NCBI GenBank assembly: GCA_005888595.1
Contig: VBAL01000112.1
Location: 24,353 to 88,352, forward strand
DNA length: 64,000 bases
DNA from: Candidatus Segetimicrobium genomatis
GTDB lineage: Bacteria > Sysuimicrobiota > Sysuimicrobiia > Sysuimicrobiales > Kaftiobacteriaceae
Reading direction: 5' to 3'
Made by a program: the position numbers and the translations under genes. Within the stretch, counting starts at the first letter, position 1, and the number at the start of each line of letters is the position of its first letter. Shown in pieces: positions 17,053 through 47,763 of the stretch. The notes beneath the pieces are model-generated. The model did no database searches and had not been told where the DNA came from. It was given only the letters and a program-made list of their open reading frames with translations.

Positions 17053-19764
17053 ATGTCGCCTGAGGCCATCGCCCAACTCATCGCGTCCCGCAGGAGTCTT
17101 GCCCCGACTGCGCGACCGCCCGACAGCGCCACCGCGCGTTTCGTAAAAGCTGAAGCCGAAGGCGGCTGCGGCGTCGTCGGCCTGGTCTGCACGGTCCCCG
17201 TCGCCGGCCGGCATATTCTGGCACCCTGCGGCCAGATGCACAACCGCGGCAACGGTAAAGGCGGCGGGCTTGCGGTAGCAGGTCTCGTCGCGGAGCAGAT
17301 GGGTGTGGACGAGCACGCACTGCGCACGGATTACCTTATCCAGATCGCGTTGCTCGAGGACGGTACCCGCGGGCGCATCGTCTCGGAGTTCATCGAGCCT
17401 GTGTTGGATGTCCGTACGGGCTACCGCATTCCCACCCTCGATGACTACCGGAATATCGACGGGCTGCAGGTGCGTCCGCCCGACGTCTGGCGGTACTTCG
17501 CCCGGGTCAAGCCCGATGTCCTGGATCGGGTCATAGCCGACAAGCACCTCACCGCCCTGGATCGTCAGGCCGCCGAAGATGAGTTCATCTCCCAGTGGGC
17601 ATTCCGGCTCAATAAGACGTTCTACGCAGACCAGAGGATGCAGGCGTTTGTGATCTCGTACGGCCGGGACATGCTGGTGCTGAAACTCGTCGGCTACGCG
17701 GAGCACGCGTTGCGCTACTACCAAATGGAGAATATCCAGGCCCGGGTGTGGATCGGCCACCAGCGCTATCCGACCAAGGGCCGCGTCTGGCATCCCGGCG
17801 GTGCTCACCCGTTCACCGCGCTCGACACCGCACTGGTGCACAACGGCGACTTCGCCAACTACCACGCCGTCAGCGAGTATCTGGCGCAGCGGAATCTGTT
17901 CCCGTTGTTCCTAACGGATACCGAAGTCTCCGTCCTGCTCGTTGACCTGTGGGCACGGATCTATGGCTATCCGGTGGAGTATGTGATCGAGGCCATGGCG
18001 CCCATGCTGCCGCCGGAGCGGCAGCGGGCCTACCGCGCTATCCAGACCGCGCACATGCACGGCTCCCCCGATGGCCCCTGGTTTTTCATCATCGCCCGCA
18101 CGATCGCAGACTCGCGGTCAAGCGGTCACGCAGTCGCGCCGTCGCGGCCGGACGTTGCCACTACCTCGCTCCACAACCCGATAGCGCGACCGCGCGACGG
18201 CGCGACCGCCTGGCAGTTGATCGGCATCACGGACACTTCGATGCTACGGCCCCAGGTGTTCGCATTGCAGGAGGGAGCGATCTCCGCCGGTATCATCGCG
18301 TCGGAGAAGCAGGCCATCGACGCGACGCTGGCCAGCCTTCACCACGAAGATCCGCGGGTGTGTCCCGTGGCCGACCGCTACTGGAATGCGCGAGGCGGTT
18401 CCTACACCGATGGCGGCGCGTTCATCTTCACGGTCACGGCGGATGAGAAGTTGATCTGCACGGACAAATTCGGGAACCGGGTATCCACTCCGCCCGGACA
18501 GCTGCATTACGTGCCGACCATCCCCATGGCGCCGGCCGCCCGGGCGGGAGGAGCTCCATCCCACGCGCGACGCGGTGGAGCGTCGCACACACCGGCGGCG
18601 GACATCAGCGATGAGGCGGCATTATTCGCGCAGGGGCGCGACGGTCTGCTCGACTGGCCCTACGACATTCTGGTGGCCTGGCTGAACGCGGTCCACCAGG
18701 AGGCGCGGGCCGGCGATCAGGTGCGGAAGATGGTGTTGGGAGCGCTGACCAGCCTTGCGGACCGCCGCCTGCCGACCGGGGCGAAGAAACGCGGTTCAAT
18801 TCTGGCGCTGCTGCACACTGCCATATACAACACGCTGAGGGACGTCCCACTCCTTGAGGGCGTTCCCCCGCATCATGCGACGCGCGGCGCGGCGAGCCGG
18901 ATGCACCGCGTGGACTGGGCGAATCGCGACCGGCTGGGCGGGCCGCCCGCACCGGACCACATCCTTGTCGTTGACGCCGATGGGTTCCCGTCCGAAGGCG
19001 ACCAGAGCCTGGCGCGTGAACTCGTGCACGCGTATCGTGCAGGGTGGCGCTCGTTGATCGTGTTCAACGTGCGCGGCCAGCGGTTCATGGGGAGCGGGTT
19101 TGGACCCGAGTCGACAGGGGTGCGCGTTGACGTGTACGGCAGTGCGGGCGATTACCTGGGTTCAGGGATGGACGGAATAGAGATACACGTGCACAACGAT
19201 GCGCAGGACCAGGTCGGCCAGATCTTGAAGGCCGGCAAACTCGCCGTCTACGGCAACGCGGGGCAGACGCTCCTGTATGGGGCCAAAGGCGGTGAGATCT
19301 ACATCCTGGGGCACGCAGCCGGGCGGCCCCTCATCAATGCGGTGGGGCGGCCACGTGTGGTCATCAACGGCACAGCCCTGGACTATCTGGCGGAGTCGTT
19401 CATGGCCGGCGATCCGCTCGAGGGCGGCGGGTTCGTGGTCCTCAACGGGATCGACTTCGACGTCGACGGTCGCATCGTCGACCTCGACACCCAGTATCCA
19501 GGCAGCAACCTGTTCTCGCTGGCCAGTGGCGGCGCCATTTATGTCCGGGACCCCTTTCAACGGCTGGACGAGGAGCAACTGAACGGCGGGCACTTCACGG
19601 ATATGAGCGAAGCGGACTGGACCACGATCCTGCCGCAACTGCAGGAGAACGAACGGCTGTTCAACATCCCTGTTGACCGGTTGCTCACCGTTGACCACAC
19701 ACTCACTCCCCCCCAGAAAGTGTACAGGAAGGTCGAACCGATGGAGCTTAGCGTCCTAAAGTGA
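17053..19764 (+). CDS. Class-II (Ntn) glutamine amidotransferase fused to a GXGXG (GltB C-terminal/FwdC-like) domain
   Basis: 903 aa. N-terminal GGCGVVGL...NRGNGKGGG...HQRYPTKG...VHNGDFANY matches GltB domain 1. The C-terminus GQRFMGSGFG...VDVYGSAGDYLGSGMDGIEIHVHNDAQDQVG...VYGNAGQTLLYGAKGGEIYILGHAAGRP is the GXGXG beta-helix. A linker of about 250 aa lies between them. Confidence 0.8.
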   Translation: MSPEAIAQLIASRRSLAPTARPPDSATARFVKAEAEGGCGVVGLVCTVPVAGRHILAPCGQMHNRGNGKGGGLAVAGLVAEQMGVDEHALRTDYLIQIALLEDGTRGRIVSEFIEPVLDVRTGYRIPTLDDYRNIDGLQVRPPDVWRYFARVKPDVLDRVIADKHLTALDRQAAEDEFISQWAFRLNKTFYADQRMQAFVISYGRDMLVLKLVGYAEHALRYYQMENIQARVWIGHQRYPTKGRVWHPGGAHPFTALDTALVHNGDFANYHAVSEYLAQRNLFPLFLTDTEVSVLLVDLWARIYGYPVEYVIEAMAPMLPPERQRAYRAIQTAHMHGSPDGPWFFIIARTIADSRSSGHAVAPSRPDVATTSLHNPIARPRDGATAWQLIGITDTSMLRPQVFALQEGAISAGIIASEKQAIDATLASLHHEDPRVCPVADRYWNARGGSYTDGGAFIFTVTADEKLICTDKFGNRVSTPPGQLHYVPTIPMAPAARAGGAPSHARRGGASHTPAADISDEAALFAQGRDGLLDWPYDILVAWLNAVHQEARAGDQVRKMVLGALTSLADRRLPTGAKKRGSILALLHTAIYNTLRDVPLLEGVPPHHATRGAASRMHRVDWANRDRLGGPPAPDHILVVDADGFPSEGDQSLARELVHAYRAGWRSLIVFNVRGQRFMGSGFGPESTGVRVDVYGSAGDYLGSGMDGIEIHVHNDAQDQVGQILKAGKLAVYGNAGQTLLYGAKGGEIYILGHAAGRPLINAVGRPRVVINGTALDYLAESFMAGDPLEGGGFVVLNGIDFDVDGRIVDLDTQYPGSNLFSLASGGAIYVRDPFQRLDEEQLNGGHFTDMSEADWTTILPQLQENERLFNIPVDRLLTVDHTLTPPQKVYRKVEPMELSVLK

Positions 19765-42702: not shown

Positions 42703-43857
42703 TTATGCCGTACTCAGCCCTCTGCGATCGTAGGTGTATACTTTTCCATTCGCGCGCAGCCGCACGGGATTCCGCCACAGGGAGTGCACGGACTTCAAGA
42801 ACAGCCCTACGCGTTTGGAATCGAGTTTCCGGTCTTCCTCCAGGTGCCCCAGCACCAACTCCTTGGGACTGCTGCCGGACTCCACTTCGATGTGGGGCTC
42901 GCCTTTGTGCAACTTCTGCGTGATGAGCATCTCCTTAACCTGCTGCAGATCGTAGGATTTCTGCTTTTCTTTGGGATCATACACAAAGATATCCAGACGG
43001 CGGACCATCTCGTCGGTAAGCATCTCGTCGATCAGGCGAATGTCCTCGTAGTAGGTACGAACCTCCAGCGCCGCGTCGAAGCCGCGCTCCCGCTTGACCC
43101 GCTGAAACAGAGCGTAGCCGATGGTGTATGGGGCGGGCCGGTTGGACAGCTGGACGCTGAGGCTGGCCCACGACGGCGTGTCCAGGATATCCCGCAGTAA
43201 TTCCGCCTCCACGAACGTCGCCCAGCCCTCATTGATGATGTGCGTACGCTGGATGAGGTCAAAGTACTCCGACTCCTCGCGGAGCATCTGCATCATATGG
43301 TGCTCCCACGATTCCAGAGGGGCCTTGTCCTCCAGATAATACATCAGCCGCTTGCGGCGCTCCGTGGGATTGCGCTCAAAAGCGTTGACGGTGCCGGCGA
43401 CCGTGAGCAGCGCATCCAGCAGTGTTTCGACTTTCTCGCGGCCGTGCACGCCCTCATACTTGCGAATCTGCCGGGCGTGGCGTTCGGCCTCGTTGAGCAT
43501 GTTCTTGTTCGACTTGGCAAACCAGTGGTTGTTGCGGAAGAAGTCGACGTGGCCGAAGACGTGCGCGATGACCAGGACGTTTTGTAGATACGTGTTGGCC
43601 CGGCGCAGGAAAGCGTGCGACGGCTTGGTGTTCAGCACCAGCTCCAGGATGCTGAACAACTCCTTGTTCTGTTGTACCACCAGTTCCTTGTAGGCGCCGC
43701 CCCAGTGCCAGTGGATGAACCGGTTGGGCAAACCCATGCTGGCCACTTCCGCGATCTCATCACTGTCGGTGAGCCGGAAGTAGACCGGGTCGAAGGAGAG
43801 GCCGCGCTGACGCGCTAGCGCTTCGATGCGGTCGATGATTTCGCGATACGAGTCCAC
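42703..43857 (-). CDS. spoVR: SpoVR family protein
   Basis: 384 aa. IHWHWGGAYKE, HVFGHVDFFRNN, INEGWATF. It follows prkA-yhbH, completing the conserved PrkA/YhbH/SpoVR triad. Confidence 0.88.
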   Translation of the reverse strand: MDSYREIIDRIEALARQRGLSFDPVYFRLTDSDEIAEVASMGLPNRFIHWHWGGAYKELVVQQNKELFSILELVLNTKPSHAFLRRANTYLQNVLVIAHVFGHVDFFRNNHWFAKSNKNMLNEAERHARQIRKYEGVHGREKVETLLDALLTVAGTVNAFERNPTERRKRLMYYLEDKAPLESWEHHMMQMLREESEYFDLIQRTHIINEGWATFVEAELLRDILDTPSWASLSVQLSNRPAPYTIGYALFQRVKRERGFDAALEVRTYYEDIRLIDEMLTDEMVRRLDIFVYDPKEKQKSYDLQQVKEMLITQKLHKGEPHIEVESGSSPKELVLGHLEEDRKLDSKRVGLFLKSVHSLWRNPVRLRANGKVYTYDRRGLSTA

Positions 43858-46676
43858 CGTCTGCCTCCGGACCGTTCACGCGCGAAGAACTCGAGAAACT
43901 CGCCCATCGTCTTGCGGATCGCCTCGATGTCAGTAAGGTTGGCGAATGTAGCGTTTGGGTAACGCCGGGCGCCATCCTGGACGTACTCCGAGAAACCTCC
44001 CACGCCGCGGCCACCAGGATTGACGTGGCCGTAGCAGACCATATCGAACCGGCTCAGGGCCTCTTCGTACCGGCGCTTGGCGAGGTCGAAGTCGCCTGAG
44101 GACGTTTCACCATCGGTGAAGACGAACAGAAACTTGTCGTGCTCGGTGACCCCGTGGAGCAACTCCATGGCCCTTTCGAAGCCCGCCGAGATGTGGGTGC
44201 CCCCGGACGACTCTACGCAGAAAAACTCGTCACGGGTCTTCTCTTCGGCCACGTCCTGGAATACGACGTAACGCCGAAGGTTCGTTGGGTAGCGGCGCTC
44301 CAGATAGTACCAGAGCACGAAGATGGTCTTGCGCACCAGGGCGAGATATTCTCCCCGCATCGACCCGGAGATGTCCAGCACGTAGACCTCCAGGGAGCGG
44401 TGGTTCTCATAGGCGGCCGGATCTTCCACAAAGTACCAGCCGTCCTGGGCCAGCTCCACGTCGTACTCGGCCGTCCCCCGCTCCCGGATGTTCCGGAGCA
44501 AGGACTGCACCATCGTCTCCTCCAGGTTCAGGTCCGGCCGCAGGCCGATCCGGTCGAGGTCGTCCAGATCCGGCAGGGCGTCGGTCTGAACCTCTCCGCT
44601 GCGCGACGGCTCGTGGAACACCGGCAGCTCAATTTCCTGCAGCAGCACTTCCTGCGCCAAACGGACAAACTCGTCAAAATCCAATTCGACCTTGATCTCG
44701 CGGCCGTGGTGGTCCCCGCCGAGCAGTCCACCCAACACCTGGATCTCCTCATCGCCGGTCTGGCCGGACCCGCCTGCACCGCCCTTGCCGCCCCGGCCGG
44801 TGCCGCGGGCCAGCACCGGGGCATCCTCCCCATACTTGAGGGTGGGTAGGTCCAGCGTGGCAATCTGCGTCTTGACCTTGCCGTCGATGATCAGTTCTTT
44901 CTGCTGGATGAGCTCATTGAGGTGCTGCTTCAAATACTCGCGCAGCAGCTGGTCGTGCTTGTGTTGGGCGATATGGCCCCGATGGATTCTCATGCTCTCG
45001 CCTTTTAGCTCCACCAACGTCAAGGCCCGTCTATCGCGTCTATTGCGTCTGTCGCGACTTCTGCTGTGGGACGCGAAAGACGCGATGATGGCGCTGCGGT
45101 ATAGCACCTTCAGCAGCTCCTGACTCTTCGTATCGAGCTCCTCGCTCTTCTCGTATAGCCGCAGCAAATTCTTGATCTTGTTGAACACGATCTCGTTGAT
45201 GACCGGGCGCAGGTGCTCGTTGTCCTTGTAACTCATGCGCAGCATCTCGTCCTTGCGCTCCAGCAGCACGTTCTCGAACGCCACCCGGCCCTGGCGGCTG
45301 ATCTGCCGCTTGGCCACCATGATCCCCTCCACCTCATCCACCAGTTCCTTCTCCGTGCTCGAGAGCGGCTCTCCGGCCACGTTGCGGGAGGCCGCTTCCA
45401 GGTAGTTGAGATACAGGTTCTGGCCGTAATCGTAGAAGTGGGTCGGCACGATCTCCTCAACGATGAGGTCGATCTTCTTGTTGATGAACTCCACCTTGGT
45501 CTCCTCAAATTGCTTGAGGAGCTCCTTGAGGTTGAGATCCTTCATGGACTGGTGCTCGAATGTACGCTCCACGGCCGCGGAGATGATGTCCAGGTCCACG
45601 CACTTCCCCGCCAGGGTGTAGGCGTACGAGAAGGCGTCTTCGAAGAACCGCGGCGACAGCCCCCGCAGCCCCTGCGACTCCTCGCGCGTCTTCAACGCAT
45701 AGCGGGCGGCGAGTTCGTACACATCCCCGGGGACGTGCTTCTCCTCGTCGCGGATGCGGTTGGCCCGCTCCACCAGCGTCTTGTAGATCTTCTTTTCCCC
45801 CTCCGCGTCGACGTTGTAGGGGAAGTCGATCTTGTGGATGCGGCCGCGCAGCGGCTCCATGATGTCCTCAGAGACGAACACCAGGTACTCGGGATAGTTA
45901 GTGTGGCCGATAACCACCTCGTCGACGTGCACCGTCGGGAAGTTGGCCAGGTCGATGCGCTTGGACTGAATGAGCTCCAGCAACAACGACAGCAGCTGGC
46001 GGCGGCTCTTGAAAACCTCCGTCCAATCCAGAATGCCGCGGTTGCCCCAGATGATCTTCCCCTCGAAGTCGTATGCCTCCGGATCGTAGGTGGAACCGCG
46101 CTCCTTCAGCATCGCGAAGTTGATGTTGCCCACGAAGTTGGTGATGTCTTCGCGGCGCAGGTCGGTGGGCGTGTGCTTGGCGACCCCGATCTTGTCCCTC
46201 GCGGAGATGTAGATGCGTTCCACCGGGAGGCGCTTCCACCCGCCCTCCCGGGCCGACAGCCGGTCGCAGACCGGACAGGGCACCGCTTCCTCGTGCCAGT
46301 GCAATCCGTGCTCCTCCCGTGCGTCCGGCGGGACGAGGTCGAAGGGATGCTGGTGGAAGGGGCATCCCTGAATCGCATACACCGCGCCGTCGGCCGTATG
46401 AGAGTACTCCTCCAGCTTGCGCTTGAGATGATCCACGGTCATCGACTTGCCGGATCCCTGCGGACCCACCAGCAGCAGGAGGCGCCGCTCCATGGACATG
46501 GAGTGCGCACGGAAGAAGGCCATGATCGCCTCCAGTTGCTTCTCCATACCGTAGATGCCTTCGAAAACGCGATCGCGGCCGTAGAACTCAATCATGTCGG
46601 AGATGTAGTGGTGGGTGGTGCGCCGCAGCCGCCGGTCGTGGCGCGCCTCCTGGAGAAATTCCTGCACCGTATTCAT
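43815..46676 (-). CDS. prkA: PrkA-type AAA+ Ser protein kinase fused in frame to a YhbH/YeaH (DUF444, vWA-like) protein
   Basis: Single 953-aa ORF. Residues 1 to about 535 are PrkA-like (LLLVGPQGSGKSM Walker A). Residues 562-953 begin MRIHRGHIAQHK (ATG at 44993), are collinear with B. subtilis YhbH, and match its length (392 aa). The 26-aa linker is encoded by a 9-mer repeat hairpin. Confidence 0.8.
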   Translation of the reverse strand: MNTVQEFLQEARHDRRLRRTTHHYISDMIEFYGRDRVFEGIYGMEKQLEAIMAFFRAHSMSMERRLLLLVGPQGSGKSMTVDHLKRKLEEYSHTADGAVYAIQGCPFHQHPFDLVPPDAREEHGLHWHEEAVPCPVCDRLSAREGGWKRLPVERIYISARDKIGVAKHTPTDLRREDITNFVGNINFAMLKERGSTYDPEAYDFEGKIIWGNRGILDWTEVFKSRRQLLSLLLELIQSKRIDLANFPTVHVDEVVIGHTNYPEYLVFVSEDIMEPLRGRIHKIDFPYNVDAEGEKKIYKTLVERANRIRDEEKHVPGDVYELAARYALKTREESQGLRGLSPRFFEDAFSYAYTLAGKCVDLDIISAAVERTFEHQSMKDLNLKELLKQFEETKVEFINKKIDLIVEEIVPTHFYDYGQNLYLNYLEAASRNVAGEPLSSTEKELVDEVEGIMVAKRQISRQGRVAFENVLLERKDEMLRMSYKDNEHLRPVINEIVFNKIKNLLRLYEKSEELDTKSQELLKVLYRSAIIASFASHSRSRDRRNRRDRRALTLVELKGESMRIHRGHIAQHKHDQLLREYLKQHLNELIQQKELIIDGKVKTQIATLDLPTLKYGEDAPVLARGTGRGGKGGAGGSGQTGDEEIQVLGGLLGGDHHGREIKVELDFDEFVRLAQEVLLQEIELPVFHEPSRSGEVQTDALPDLDDLDRIGLRPDLNLEETMVQSLLRNIRERGTAEYDVELAQDGWYFVEDPAAYENHRSLEVYVLDISGSMRGEYLALVRKTIFVLWYYLERRYPTNLRRYVVFQDVAEEKTRDEFFCVESSGGTHISAGFERAMELLHGVTEHDKFLFVFTDGETSSGDFDLAKRRYEEALSRFDMVCYGHVNPGGRGVGGFSEYVQDGARRYPNATFANLTDIEAIRKTMGEFLEFFARERSGGRRWTRIAKSSTASKR
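45028..45091. repeat. Tandem 9-mer hairpin (CGTCTATYG family) inside the prkA-yhbH junction
   Basis: cgtctatcg cgtctattg cgtctgtcg at 45028-45054. ATCGCGTCT at 45033-45041 is complementary to AGACGCGAT at 45079-45087. Read through in frame as SRSRDRRNRRDRR. Confidence 0.75.
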
Positions 46677-47055: not shown

Positions 47056-47733
47056 TCATACCGCCGAGCGGTGCACCGTCGCCGGTTCGAGCGCAACATA
47101 CACGGCGTGAGCCTGATCGAACGAGACCTCTCGGGATGCCTGTTCGGTCCGTACCCGCATCGAACCATCGGCGGCCACATCGATCACTTCCACCAGCGCG
47201 CCCGGCAGCAGCCGCGCCTCCGACAGCCCACGCAGTACCGAAGGAACGCTGTCCCTCAGGCGCACAACCACGCCACGCTCGCCTTGGTGCATGTCCGAGA
47301 GCAGCGGATGATGCATCGCTTCGACGGCGCCTTCGCGGGTGGGGATGGGATCGCCGTGCGGGTCGTAGGTCGGATCGCCCAGCGACTGCGCAATACGCTC
47401 CTCGAGTTCTTCCGAGATGACGTGCTCTAACCGTTCGGCCTCCGCGTCGACACGGTCCAGGCCGACGCCCAGGTGGCGGGCCAGGTAGAGCTCGATCAGC
47501 CGGTGATGGCGGATCACCTCCAGAGCGATCTTCTCGCCACCCGAGGTGAGCTGCACCGCGTGGTACGGCGTATGATCCACCAGCTGCAATCGCGCCAGCT
47601 TTTTGATCATGTTCGACGCCGAGGCAGGCGCTACGTTCAGGCGCGCCGCGACGGCGTTCGTCGTCACCACCTCACCGGCCTGGCGGAGCTTGTAAATCAC
47701 CTTCAAATAATCTTCGATGGCTTGCGTTAACAT
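47056..47733 (-). CDS. DtxR/MntR-family metal-dependent transcriptional regulator with a FeoA/SH3-like C-terminal domain
   Basis: IEDYLKVIYKL...TTNAVAARLNVAPASASNMIKKLARLQLV...GGEKIALEVIRHHRLIELYL...DAEAERLEHVIS. Confidence 0.88.
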   Translation of the reverse strand: MLTQAIEDYLKVIYKLRQAGEVVTTNAVAARLNVAPASASNMIKKLARLQLVDHTPYHAVQLTSGGEKIALEVIRHHRLIELYLARHLGVGLDRVDAEAERLEHVISEELEERIAQSLGDPTYDPHGDPIPTREGAVEAMHHPLLSDMHQGERGVVVRLRDSVPSVLRGLSEARLLPGALVEVIDVAADGSMRVRTEQASREVSFDQAHAVYVALEPATVHRSAV

Positions 47734-47734
47734 C

Positions 47735-47763
47735 GTGATTCGTGACTCGTGATTCGTGATTCG
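47735..47763. repeat. Solo arm of the GTGATTC heptamer family
   Basis: gtgattc gtgactc gtgattc gtgattc g, between the ZIP stop and the regulator start. No complementary arm nearby. Confidence 0.7.

Follow-up and report, generated by a model that had tools for sequence, protein, structure and literature searches.

A truncated prkA joined in frame to yhbH by a hairpin-bearing replacement tract, probably a private allele of an ordinary operon in a soil bacterium of the candidate phylum CSP1-3

We analyzed an open reading frame (ORF) of 953 amino acids (aa) that joins prkA and yhbH in a 64,000-nucleotide (nt) stretch of contig VBAL01000112.1, hereafter the window, whose numbering is used throughout. 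The DNA comes from Candidatus Segetimicrobium genomatis, an uncultured soil bacterium of the candidate phylum CSP1-3 (Sysuimicrobiota), whose genus includes the soil metagenome-assembled genomes (MAGs) 'Bacillati bacterium ANGP1' NP_1 and NP_8. The 953-aa ORF is probably a real, private allele of an ordinary prkA-yhbH-spoVR operon that arose by accident, when the end of prkA and the spacer behind it were exchanged for an unrelated tract carrying a hairpin of tandem 9-nt words. It is not a conserved fusion protein, and no PrkA-YhbH fusion family is established by it. Below, G000 denotes the genome of the window and C38 its contig; related loci or contigs carry L-numbers, and homologous proteins carry P-numbers.

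Results

The 953-aa ORF combines a shortened PrkA with a complete YhbH

The original prediction, made from the letters of the window alone, described a PrkA-like AAA+ kinase, a hairpin-encoded linker and a complete YhbH-like protein within a single ORF. This layout was confirmed by the ORF listing, which places the frame with an ATG start at 43815..46676 on the minus strand, and by Pfam and NCBIfam. AAA_PrkA (PF08298) matches residues 26-332 (E = 3.8e-58), and the Walker A motif of the PrkA-type N-terminal AAA+ domain is present as GPQGSGKS. PrkA_C (PF06798) matches residues 323-523, and DUF444 (PF04285) lies in the second half of the protein, extending to residue 924. The NCBIfam YhbH model NF003711 aligns with residues 572-928 over positions 10-365 of its 369. 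The yhbH part (43815..44993, minus strand) was recognized by PF04285 and NCBIfam YhbH models and is complete, as predicted, at 392 aa from its native ATG at 44993. This internal ATG starts MRIHRGHIAQHK, which the alignment shows to be the YhbH N-terminus of all relatives (conserved as MRIHRG..IAQ.KHD), and the same protein stands alone elsewhere.

The internal boundaries had to be moved. PrkA had been thought to extend to about residue 535 and to be followed by a linker of 26 aa; its homology stops at residue 530 (...YRSAI), and the non-homologous tract amounts to 31 residues, 531-561 (IASFASHSRSRDRRNRRDRRALTLVELKGES), encoded by 93 nt at 44994..45086 (minus strand). The prkA part (codons 1-530; 45087..46676, minus strand) accordingly holds the AAA+ domain and most of the C-terminal domain, without the last 21 codons and the stop codon.

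The missing segment is a conserved one. In about 60 related loci in which both genes are readable, PrkA ends in ...YRSAI-(3-4 aa)-GYCxxCArsLFkviGRSF, directly followed by the stop codon, and in the common allele of the window's species this family-wide helix reads EQYGYCDVCARSLFKVIGRSF before a TAG stop. The terminal GY(C/x)xx(C/S)A...G helix that completes the PrkA C-terminal domain is absent from the window protein, whose match to PF06798 covers model positions 25-232 of 255 (34.8 bits), compared with positions 20-252 of 255 (56.6 bits) in the intact relative P0002. The sequence of the sole solved PrkA relative (PDB 9xip, 9xiq and 9xir) has the same ...DYGYCEHCASGVLE end. Among diverse full-length representatives, 70 of 116 have a CxxC in their last 45 residues, and most of the others carry an equivalent GYxxxSA helix. 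With the loss of a helix whose conservation extends from this phylum to the one PrkA structure that has been solved, PrkA is probably impaired in the fused allele. Within residues 1-530 it differs from the same-species alleles by 2-4 residues only. We also considered that the missing prkA tail might persist elsewhere in the MAG as a strain-variant fragment, and rejected this: the tail is absent from every other contig of G000. PrkA proteins of this phylum have 551 aa, compared with about 630-690 aa in the characterized ones.

The same species and its relatives keep two genes

At least 11 other contigs are on record with the identical 392-aa YhbH encoded as a separate protein. In the protein cluster table the 953-aa protein occurs on one contig only, that of the window, and an exact look-up of it returned no independent record. 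Ten of the YhbH-identical contigs, from JGI and ENA samples, were retrieved, and nine of them belong to the window's species. All ten share the gene order Zip, Fe-dependent repressor, PrkA (551 aa), YhbH (392 aa), SpoVR (384 aa) and short-chain dehydrogenase. The nine same-species contigs, which are 98.6-99.95% identical to the window in DNA, encode a PrkA of 551 aa with its stop codon, followed by a spacer of 50 nt, and all of them read ...CGCAGCGCCATC GAGCAATACGGCTATTGCGACGTGTGCGCCCGGTCACTCTTCAAGGTGATCGGCCGAAGTTTCTAG CTGAGAGCGTTGATGTCGAGC (GAATCAC)x4 G ATG. An ungapped comparison of L082 with the window gives identities of 98.6% on the prkA side (2,884 nt) and 99.57% on the yhbH side (4,179 nt), and L090 has 5 mismatches in the 1,835 nt downstream of the yhbH ATG, four of them being the clustered synonymous changes described below.

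The two genes are distinct in 41 related genomes and 51 named loci, with spacers from -1 to 301 nt and in any relative frame, and no PrkA-DUF444 fusion occurs among the top 150 of 1,306 matches in 1.84 billion representative proteins. Comparison with orthologous loci had been proposed as a check on the fusion, and its outcome speaks against a lineage trait: with nine same-species contigs and about 60 related loci keeping two genes, the fusion is a trait neither of the lineage nor of the species. A maintained ('Rosetta stone') fusion is one found in more than one independent genome with both partners intact; here there is one genome, and the PrkA partner is truncated.

Long PrkA matches of 1,000-1,570 aa were considered as further PrkA-YhbH fusions and discarded, as they are PrkA proteins with inteins and LAGLIDADG domains. 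Homologues in this size range with at least one LAGLIDADG-bearing intein inside the AAA domain are P0114, P0122, P0130, P0168, P0189 and P0195.

A separate observation concerns P0001 (SRR3989442_642097), a PrkA from the same genus encoded by an odd prkA allele; its tail is intact, 64 residues of the AAA region are deleted in frame, and an upstream read-through adds 69 codons. The protein equals the window PrkA over its last 220 aligned residues, except for three substitutions near the edge of the deletion, and represents a second lesion allele or else an error of assembly.

The end of prkA and the spacer were replaced

The alignment of the window with L082 breaks exactly at 45087 and resumes at 44993. 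The common allele has 116 nt between these breakpoints, of which 66 nt are the 21 terminal codons of prkA with their stop and 50 nt are the spacer. In the window their place is taken by 93 nt of unrelated sequence, so that the change is a replacement and neither a point loss of the stop codon nor a simple deletion. Up to the left joint, the prkA part matches the common allele at every position but one, which lies 15 nt from the joint and varies among the contigs. The left joint, GCCATC/ATCGCG, keeps both ATC triplets and shows no microhomology. On the other side, four synonymous third-position changes lie within the first 24 nt of yhbH (nt 9, 12, 15 and 24; 44970..44985, minus strand) and set the window apart from all nine same-species contigs; the sequence beyond them is essentially identical.

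The 93-nt tract was not found in any other retrieved locus. In 94 genomes of the order, only its hairpin words were matched, at other loci, and two scans of JGI metagenome contigs, with the left joint in one and the right part of the tract in the other, gave 0 matches each. We also asked whether the linker derives by divergence or inversion from the prkA tail or from the spacer of the congeners, and rejected both origins, as the local alignments scored no better than shuffles.

Frame 0 is the sole stop-free frame of the tract. A stop-free frame is found in 29% of shuffled tracts and in 38% of all element-frames in the genome, so that an open outcome in frame is expected in about 10-13% of such events (1/3 x 0.29-0.38). 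Selection is therefore not needed to explain the fusion. The flanks are 99-99.95% identical to unfused alleles, which makes the event a very recent one.

The replacement also removed a repeat. The common allele contains a 33-nt sequence, GAATCACGAATCACGAGTCACGAATCACGATG, twice in direct orientation, adjoining the ATG of the Fe-dependent repressor gene and the ATG of yhbH; the two copies bracket about 2.8 kb, comprising the repressor gene and prkA. Only the copy at the repressor gene is kept in the window, as a GAATCAC x4 array at 47731..47763 (minus strand; Tandem Repeats Finder (TRF) row 47733-47763) that matches L082:2971-3003 with 100% identity over 33 nt, and the yhbH copy is lost. The yhbH of the common allele has no Shine-Dalgarno-like motif, because the GAATCAC array adjoins the ATG and leaves no room for one.

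The tract carries a hairpin of a dispersed tandem-word family

Repeat finding, TRF and RNA folding delimit a tandem 9-nt-word hairpin at 45028..45086 (minus strand). It comprises 3.2 tandem copies of the 9-mer CGTCTATCG at 45028-45056 and two inverted arms of 17 nt (45033-45049 and 45070-45086) that are 88% complementary, and on the coding strand it reads ATC GCGTCTTTC GCGTCC, loop, GACA GACGCAATA GACGCGATA GACGG. The predicted RNA fold has -33.6 kcal/mol (z = -3.9), and none of 200 shuffled sequences folds as well. The words belong to a family of 9-mers, GCGTC[TC]NNN, paired with GACGC[AG]ANA. Hairpin words of this kind (GACGCAATAGACGCGATAGAC) recur at about 11 other loci of G000, in intergenic spacers and often a few nt after a stop codon, and the same word family is present in the congeners G001, G002 and G004. 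The linker gave no Rfam match and, on its coding strand, no promoter-like or terminator-like site (no T-run).

The claim that the linker hairpin is of the same class as the intergenic hairpins of this genome is well borne out by repeat, fold and dispersal evidence: like them, it has two arms of reverse-complementary 9-nt words, and its family is dispersed. It departs from them in lying inside an ORF, with the upstream stop codon gone, and its left arm is short, at about 2 words compared with 3-5 at other loci. The left arm at a locus on contig C176, GCGTCCATCGCGTCTTTCGCGTCC, is nearly the same as CCATCATCGCGTCTTTCGCGTCC in the linker. The linker had further been described as an intergenic element that lacks a stop. 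The element class stands, but 'lacks a stop' understates the change, since the replacement took in the spacer, the stop codon and the 21 prkA codons before it.

The prkA-yhbH spacer occurs with four fillings in the genus: a GTCTACCAG hairpin (G001 and L087), a GTCTACTTA hairpin (G002), the solo GAATCAC array of the species' common allele and the GCGTC hairpin of the window. The spacer is a hotspot of hairpin-element turnover. The spacer hairpins of L007 (G001) and L008 (G002) are themselves homologous, sharing a GTCT skeleton and a loop that ends in TTTTGA. Their words differ in five variable bases (ACCAG in G001, ACTTA or ACTTG in G002) that have changed in concert on both arms, and the genes flanking these two hairpins are 88-96% identical to the window in DNA.

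In the 2.94 Mb of G000, a census counted 290 paired tandem-word hairpins, a density of about one per 10 kb, with periods of 7 (148 hairpins), 8 (69) and 9 (73). At 26 of the 290, the reading frame stays open for 80 codons or more on each side; on inspection most of these frames looked like spurious GC-rich frames or gene leaders that are open by chance, and the hairpins convincingly in frame in real genes numbered two.

An 8-mer hairpin at 18125-18209 lies in frame in a 903-aa GATase/GXGXG (glutamate-synthase-like) ORF (17053..19764, plus strand), with words GCGGTCAN... paired with GCGCGACC. The loop between FFIIAR and WQLIGITDTSML has about 37 residues here, compared with 7-9 in most relatives, so that about 28 residues have been added. 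The same insert is found in the congener G001, and shorter, different inserts occupy the same loop in G012 and G011. The presence of this insert in two species makes a translated hairpin linker credible, and lowers, without removing, the probability that the prkA-yhbH junction is an artefact.

Discussion

Origin of the fused frame

We consider it likely that the 953-aa ORF is a genuine allele, private and accidental, and the following sequence of events would account for it. The starting point would be the common allele, with a 551-aa PrkA, a TAG stop and a 50-nt spacer ending in GAATCAC x4 against the yhbH ATG. The 116 nt from prkA codon 531 to the base before that ATG would then have been swapped for 93 unrelated nt with a GCGTC/GACGC hairpin. 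The tract may have come from a diverged relative by recombination, with its homologous end in the 5' end of yhbH and its illegitimate end inside prkA; the four clustered synonymous changes, together with the abrupt joint in prkA, are as expected of a tract copied from a diverged homologous locus. A deletion after element turnover would be an alternative route. As the tract is a multiple of three and stop-free in frame 0, prkA reads straight into yhbH. The product from the prkA start would be PrkA(delta-C21)-Arg-rich linker-YhbH, of about 108 kDa, and initiation at the internal ATG, preceded at a distance of 5-12 nt by the weak Shine-Dalgarno-like AAGGCGAG, might yield some free YhbH. The original prediction had offered three options: a fusion created by the repeat system, read-through or internal initiation giving two products, and an assembly indel. 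The first of these fits best, though as a private accidental allele.

A mechanism of this kind has been established. Homology-facilitated illegitimate recombination (PMC3240628) has one homologous end, for which the diverged 5' end of yhbH would stand here, and one abrupt joint, with loss of recipient DNA, and the sequence pattern of the window fits it. The window differs in that its joint is without microhomology and in that the donor was not found.

Several points weigh against a genuine accidental allele. It rests on one short-read metagenome contig. No donor of the 93-nt tract was found among the retrieved loci, the 94 genomes of the order and the JGI metagenome contigs, and a left joint without microhomology is unusual for illegitimate joints. 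One would not expect the majority allele of a large soil population to lack a helix that is universally conserved, except where loss of function is tolerated. Furthermore, the statement that the allele is found nowhere else is weaker than it appears, as the records nearest to the window's genome may lie outside the coverage.

Observations in other bacteria bear on the question of tolerance. E. coli mutants in yeaG-yeaH-ycgB, the counterpart of prkA-yhbH-spoVR, grow better with arginine as nitrogen source (10.1101/072470), and a yeaG nonsense mutation was recorded in an evolved Pseudomonas putida clone that was without the ycgB mutation common to the other clones (10.64898/2026.07.20.739708). 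Loss of function in this module is thus sometimes advantageous, and a strain with an impaired PrkA is not implausible.

Alternative explanations

The best of the alternatives, which we nonetheless regard as unlikely, is an artefact of assembly or curation, in which case the true genome would have either the two-gene allele common in the species or a complete prkA with a hairpin spacer behind it. The 93-nt tract and the abrupt left joint could then, with the same low likelihood, have been produced where sequences from co-occurring strains were misassembled at a repeat hairpin. G000 is a short-read MAG (2.94 Mb, 87.8% complete, 325 contigs), and tandem-word hairpins are hard for short reads. The allele is also a singleton: the 953-aa protein is on one contig, set against ten contigs with an identical YhbH and separate genes; its junction and tract are absent from JGI metagenome contigs; and the change removes a universally conserved segment. 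These points favour an artefact; others speak against it. A k-mer assembler needs shared k-mers at both joints, yet no other G000 locus has more than about 18 nt in common with the junction (ATCGCGTCTTTCGCGTCC, on C176), so that the left joint could not have arisen along a path of shared k-mers; the whole tract is not a copy of any other G000 locus. Repeat collapse alters the number of words and would not remove unique coding sequence, of which 66 nt are lost here. At the right end, the four synonymous changes resemble a genuine diverged homologue rather than noise, and the in-frame hairpin of the GATase/GXGXG gene is common to two separately assembled species.

A broader idea, to which we give little credence, is that the tandem-word hairpins of this phylum do more than fill intergenic space: they would be exchanged between strains and would donate linkers or loops to proteins whenever they fall in frame, the GATase/GXGXG insert and the present fusion being the two examples in the window, and PrkA(delta-C)-linker-YhbH would be made and would work. 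If so, the natural occurrence of the fusion would be evidence that PrkA and YhbH work together as a single physical machine.

The weakest alternative is a functional, selected fusion of the 'Rosetta stone' type, in which the hairpin would provide a flexible Arg-rich linker that tethers YhbH to PrkA 1:1. By this account, which seems to us very improbable, the tether would be advantageous and would reveal that PrkA and YhbH work as a physical complex, an idea no better placed than the fusion itself. Such a complex is plausible in that yeaG, yeaH and ycgB are mutual best cofitness partners, usually in one operon. Both halves of the ORF are moreover free of frameshifts and stops, PrkA being only 2-4 residues off the same-species alleles; the 31-residue linker is of low complexity; and the GATase/GXGXG hairpin is tolerated in frame in a conserved gene. 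Against these points, no second case exists in the species, the genus, the phylum or the top matches among the 1.84 billion representatives, PrkA loses its conserved terminal helix, an open tract in frame is expected by chance in about 1 of 8-10 events, and the event is so recent that selection has had no time to leave a trace.

Relation to known elements and significance

STRR-type hairpins of cyanobacteria are intergenic and have arms built of tandem heptamer-to-nonamer words. To our knowledge, no coding role has been reported for them. Words such as CCCCAGT occur in the window too, but the phylum differs.

Translated repeats of another type are the Rickettsia palindromic elements (RPEs) and MITE-like in-frame repeats (PMC10969869), in which, as here, a dispersed palindromic repeat is translated in a host protein. 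RPEs are about 150 bp long, encode a conserved peptide and are inserted in frame in many genes, whereas the hairpins of the window's genome consist of tandem 7-9-nt words that differ by locus, as do the peptides, and are nearly always intergenic. The element of the window is, in addition, no clean insertion, having come with a deletion that fused two genes.

The kind of event is a known one: two genes are fused when the stop codon and spacer between them are lost, and a repeat element becomes translated in frame. The novelty lies in the combination of PrkA with YhbH and in the type of element. The locus provides a case of tandem-word hairpins remodelling gene ends: within a genus, a single spacer holds four element alleles that are unrelated to one another, and a single exchange has both clipped a conserved gene end and joined two genes. 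The fusion should not be used as Rosetta-stone evidence unless read support and expression data accompany it. The allele nevertheless points to two testable features, the conserved C-terminal helix of PrkA and a 1:1 tether to YhbH, in a module that is under active study.

The prkA-yhbH-spoVR module and the downstream gene

The window has the gene order, the domains and the yhbH-spoVR coupling of the prkA-yhbH-spoVR (yeaG-yeaH-ycgB) module, and differs from it in that prkA and yhbH form one ORF and PrkA is without its last 21 residues. In six bacteria yeaG, yeaH and ycgB are mutual best cofitness partners, usually in one operon, and the trio acts as one functional unit in many bacteria (bioRxiv 10.1101/072470). 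In E. coli, starvation-induced protein degradation depends on YeaG (PMC13684143), and B. subtilis PrkA has been reported to be an ATP-dependent protease (PMC9512850).

Directly downstream of the fused ORF lies spoVR (42703..43857, minus strand), identified by Pfam PF04293 (E = 2.9e-60). That it completes the triad, with a 43-nt overlap of yhbH and spoVR, had been recognized from the sequence, and we found the overlap conserved in most related loci. Across about 50 related loci it measures 43 nt, or 26 nt in some genera, with ATG, GTG or TTG at the equivalent position. To judge from these loci, the 43-nt overlap is a normal trait of the lineage, and an overlap so fixed across the phylum suggests a conserved translational coupling of yhbH and spoVR.

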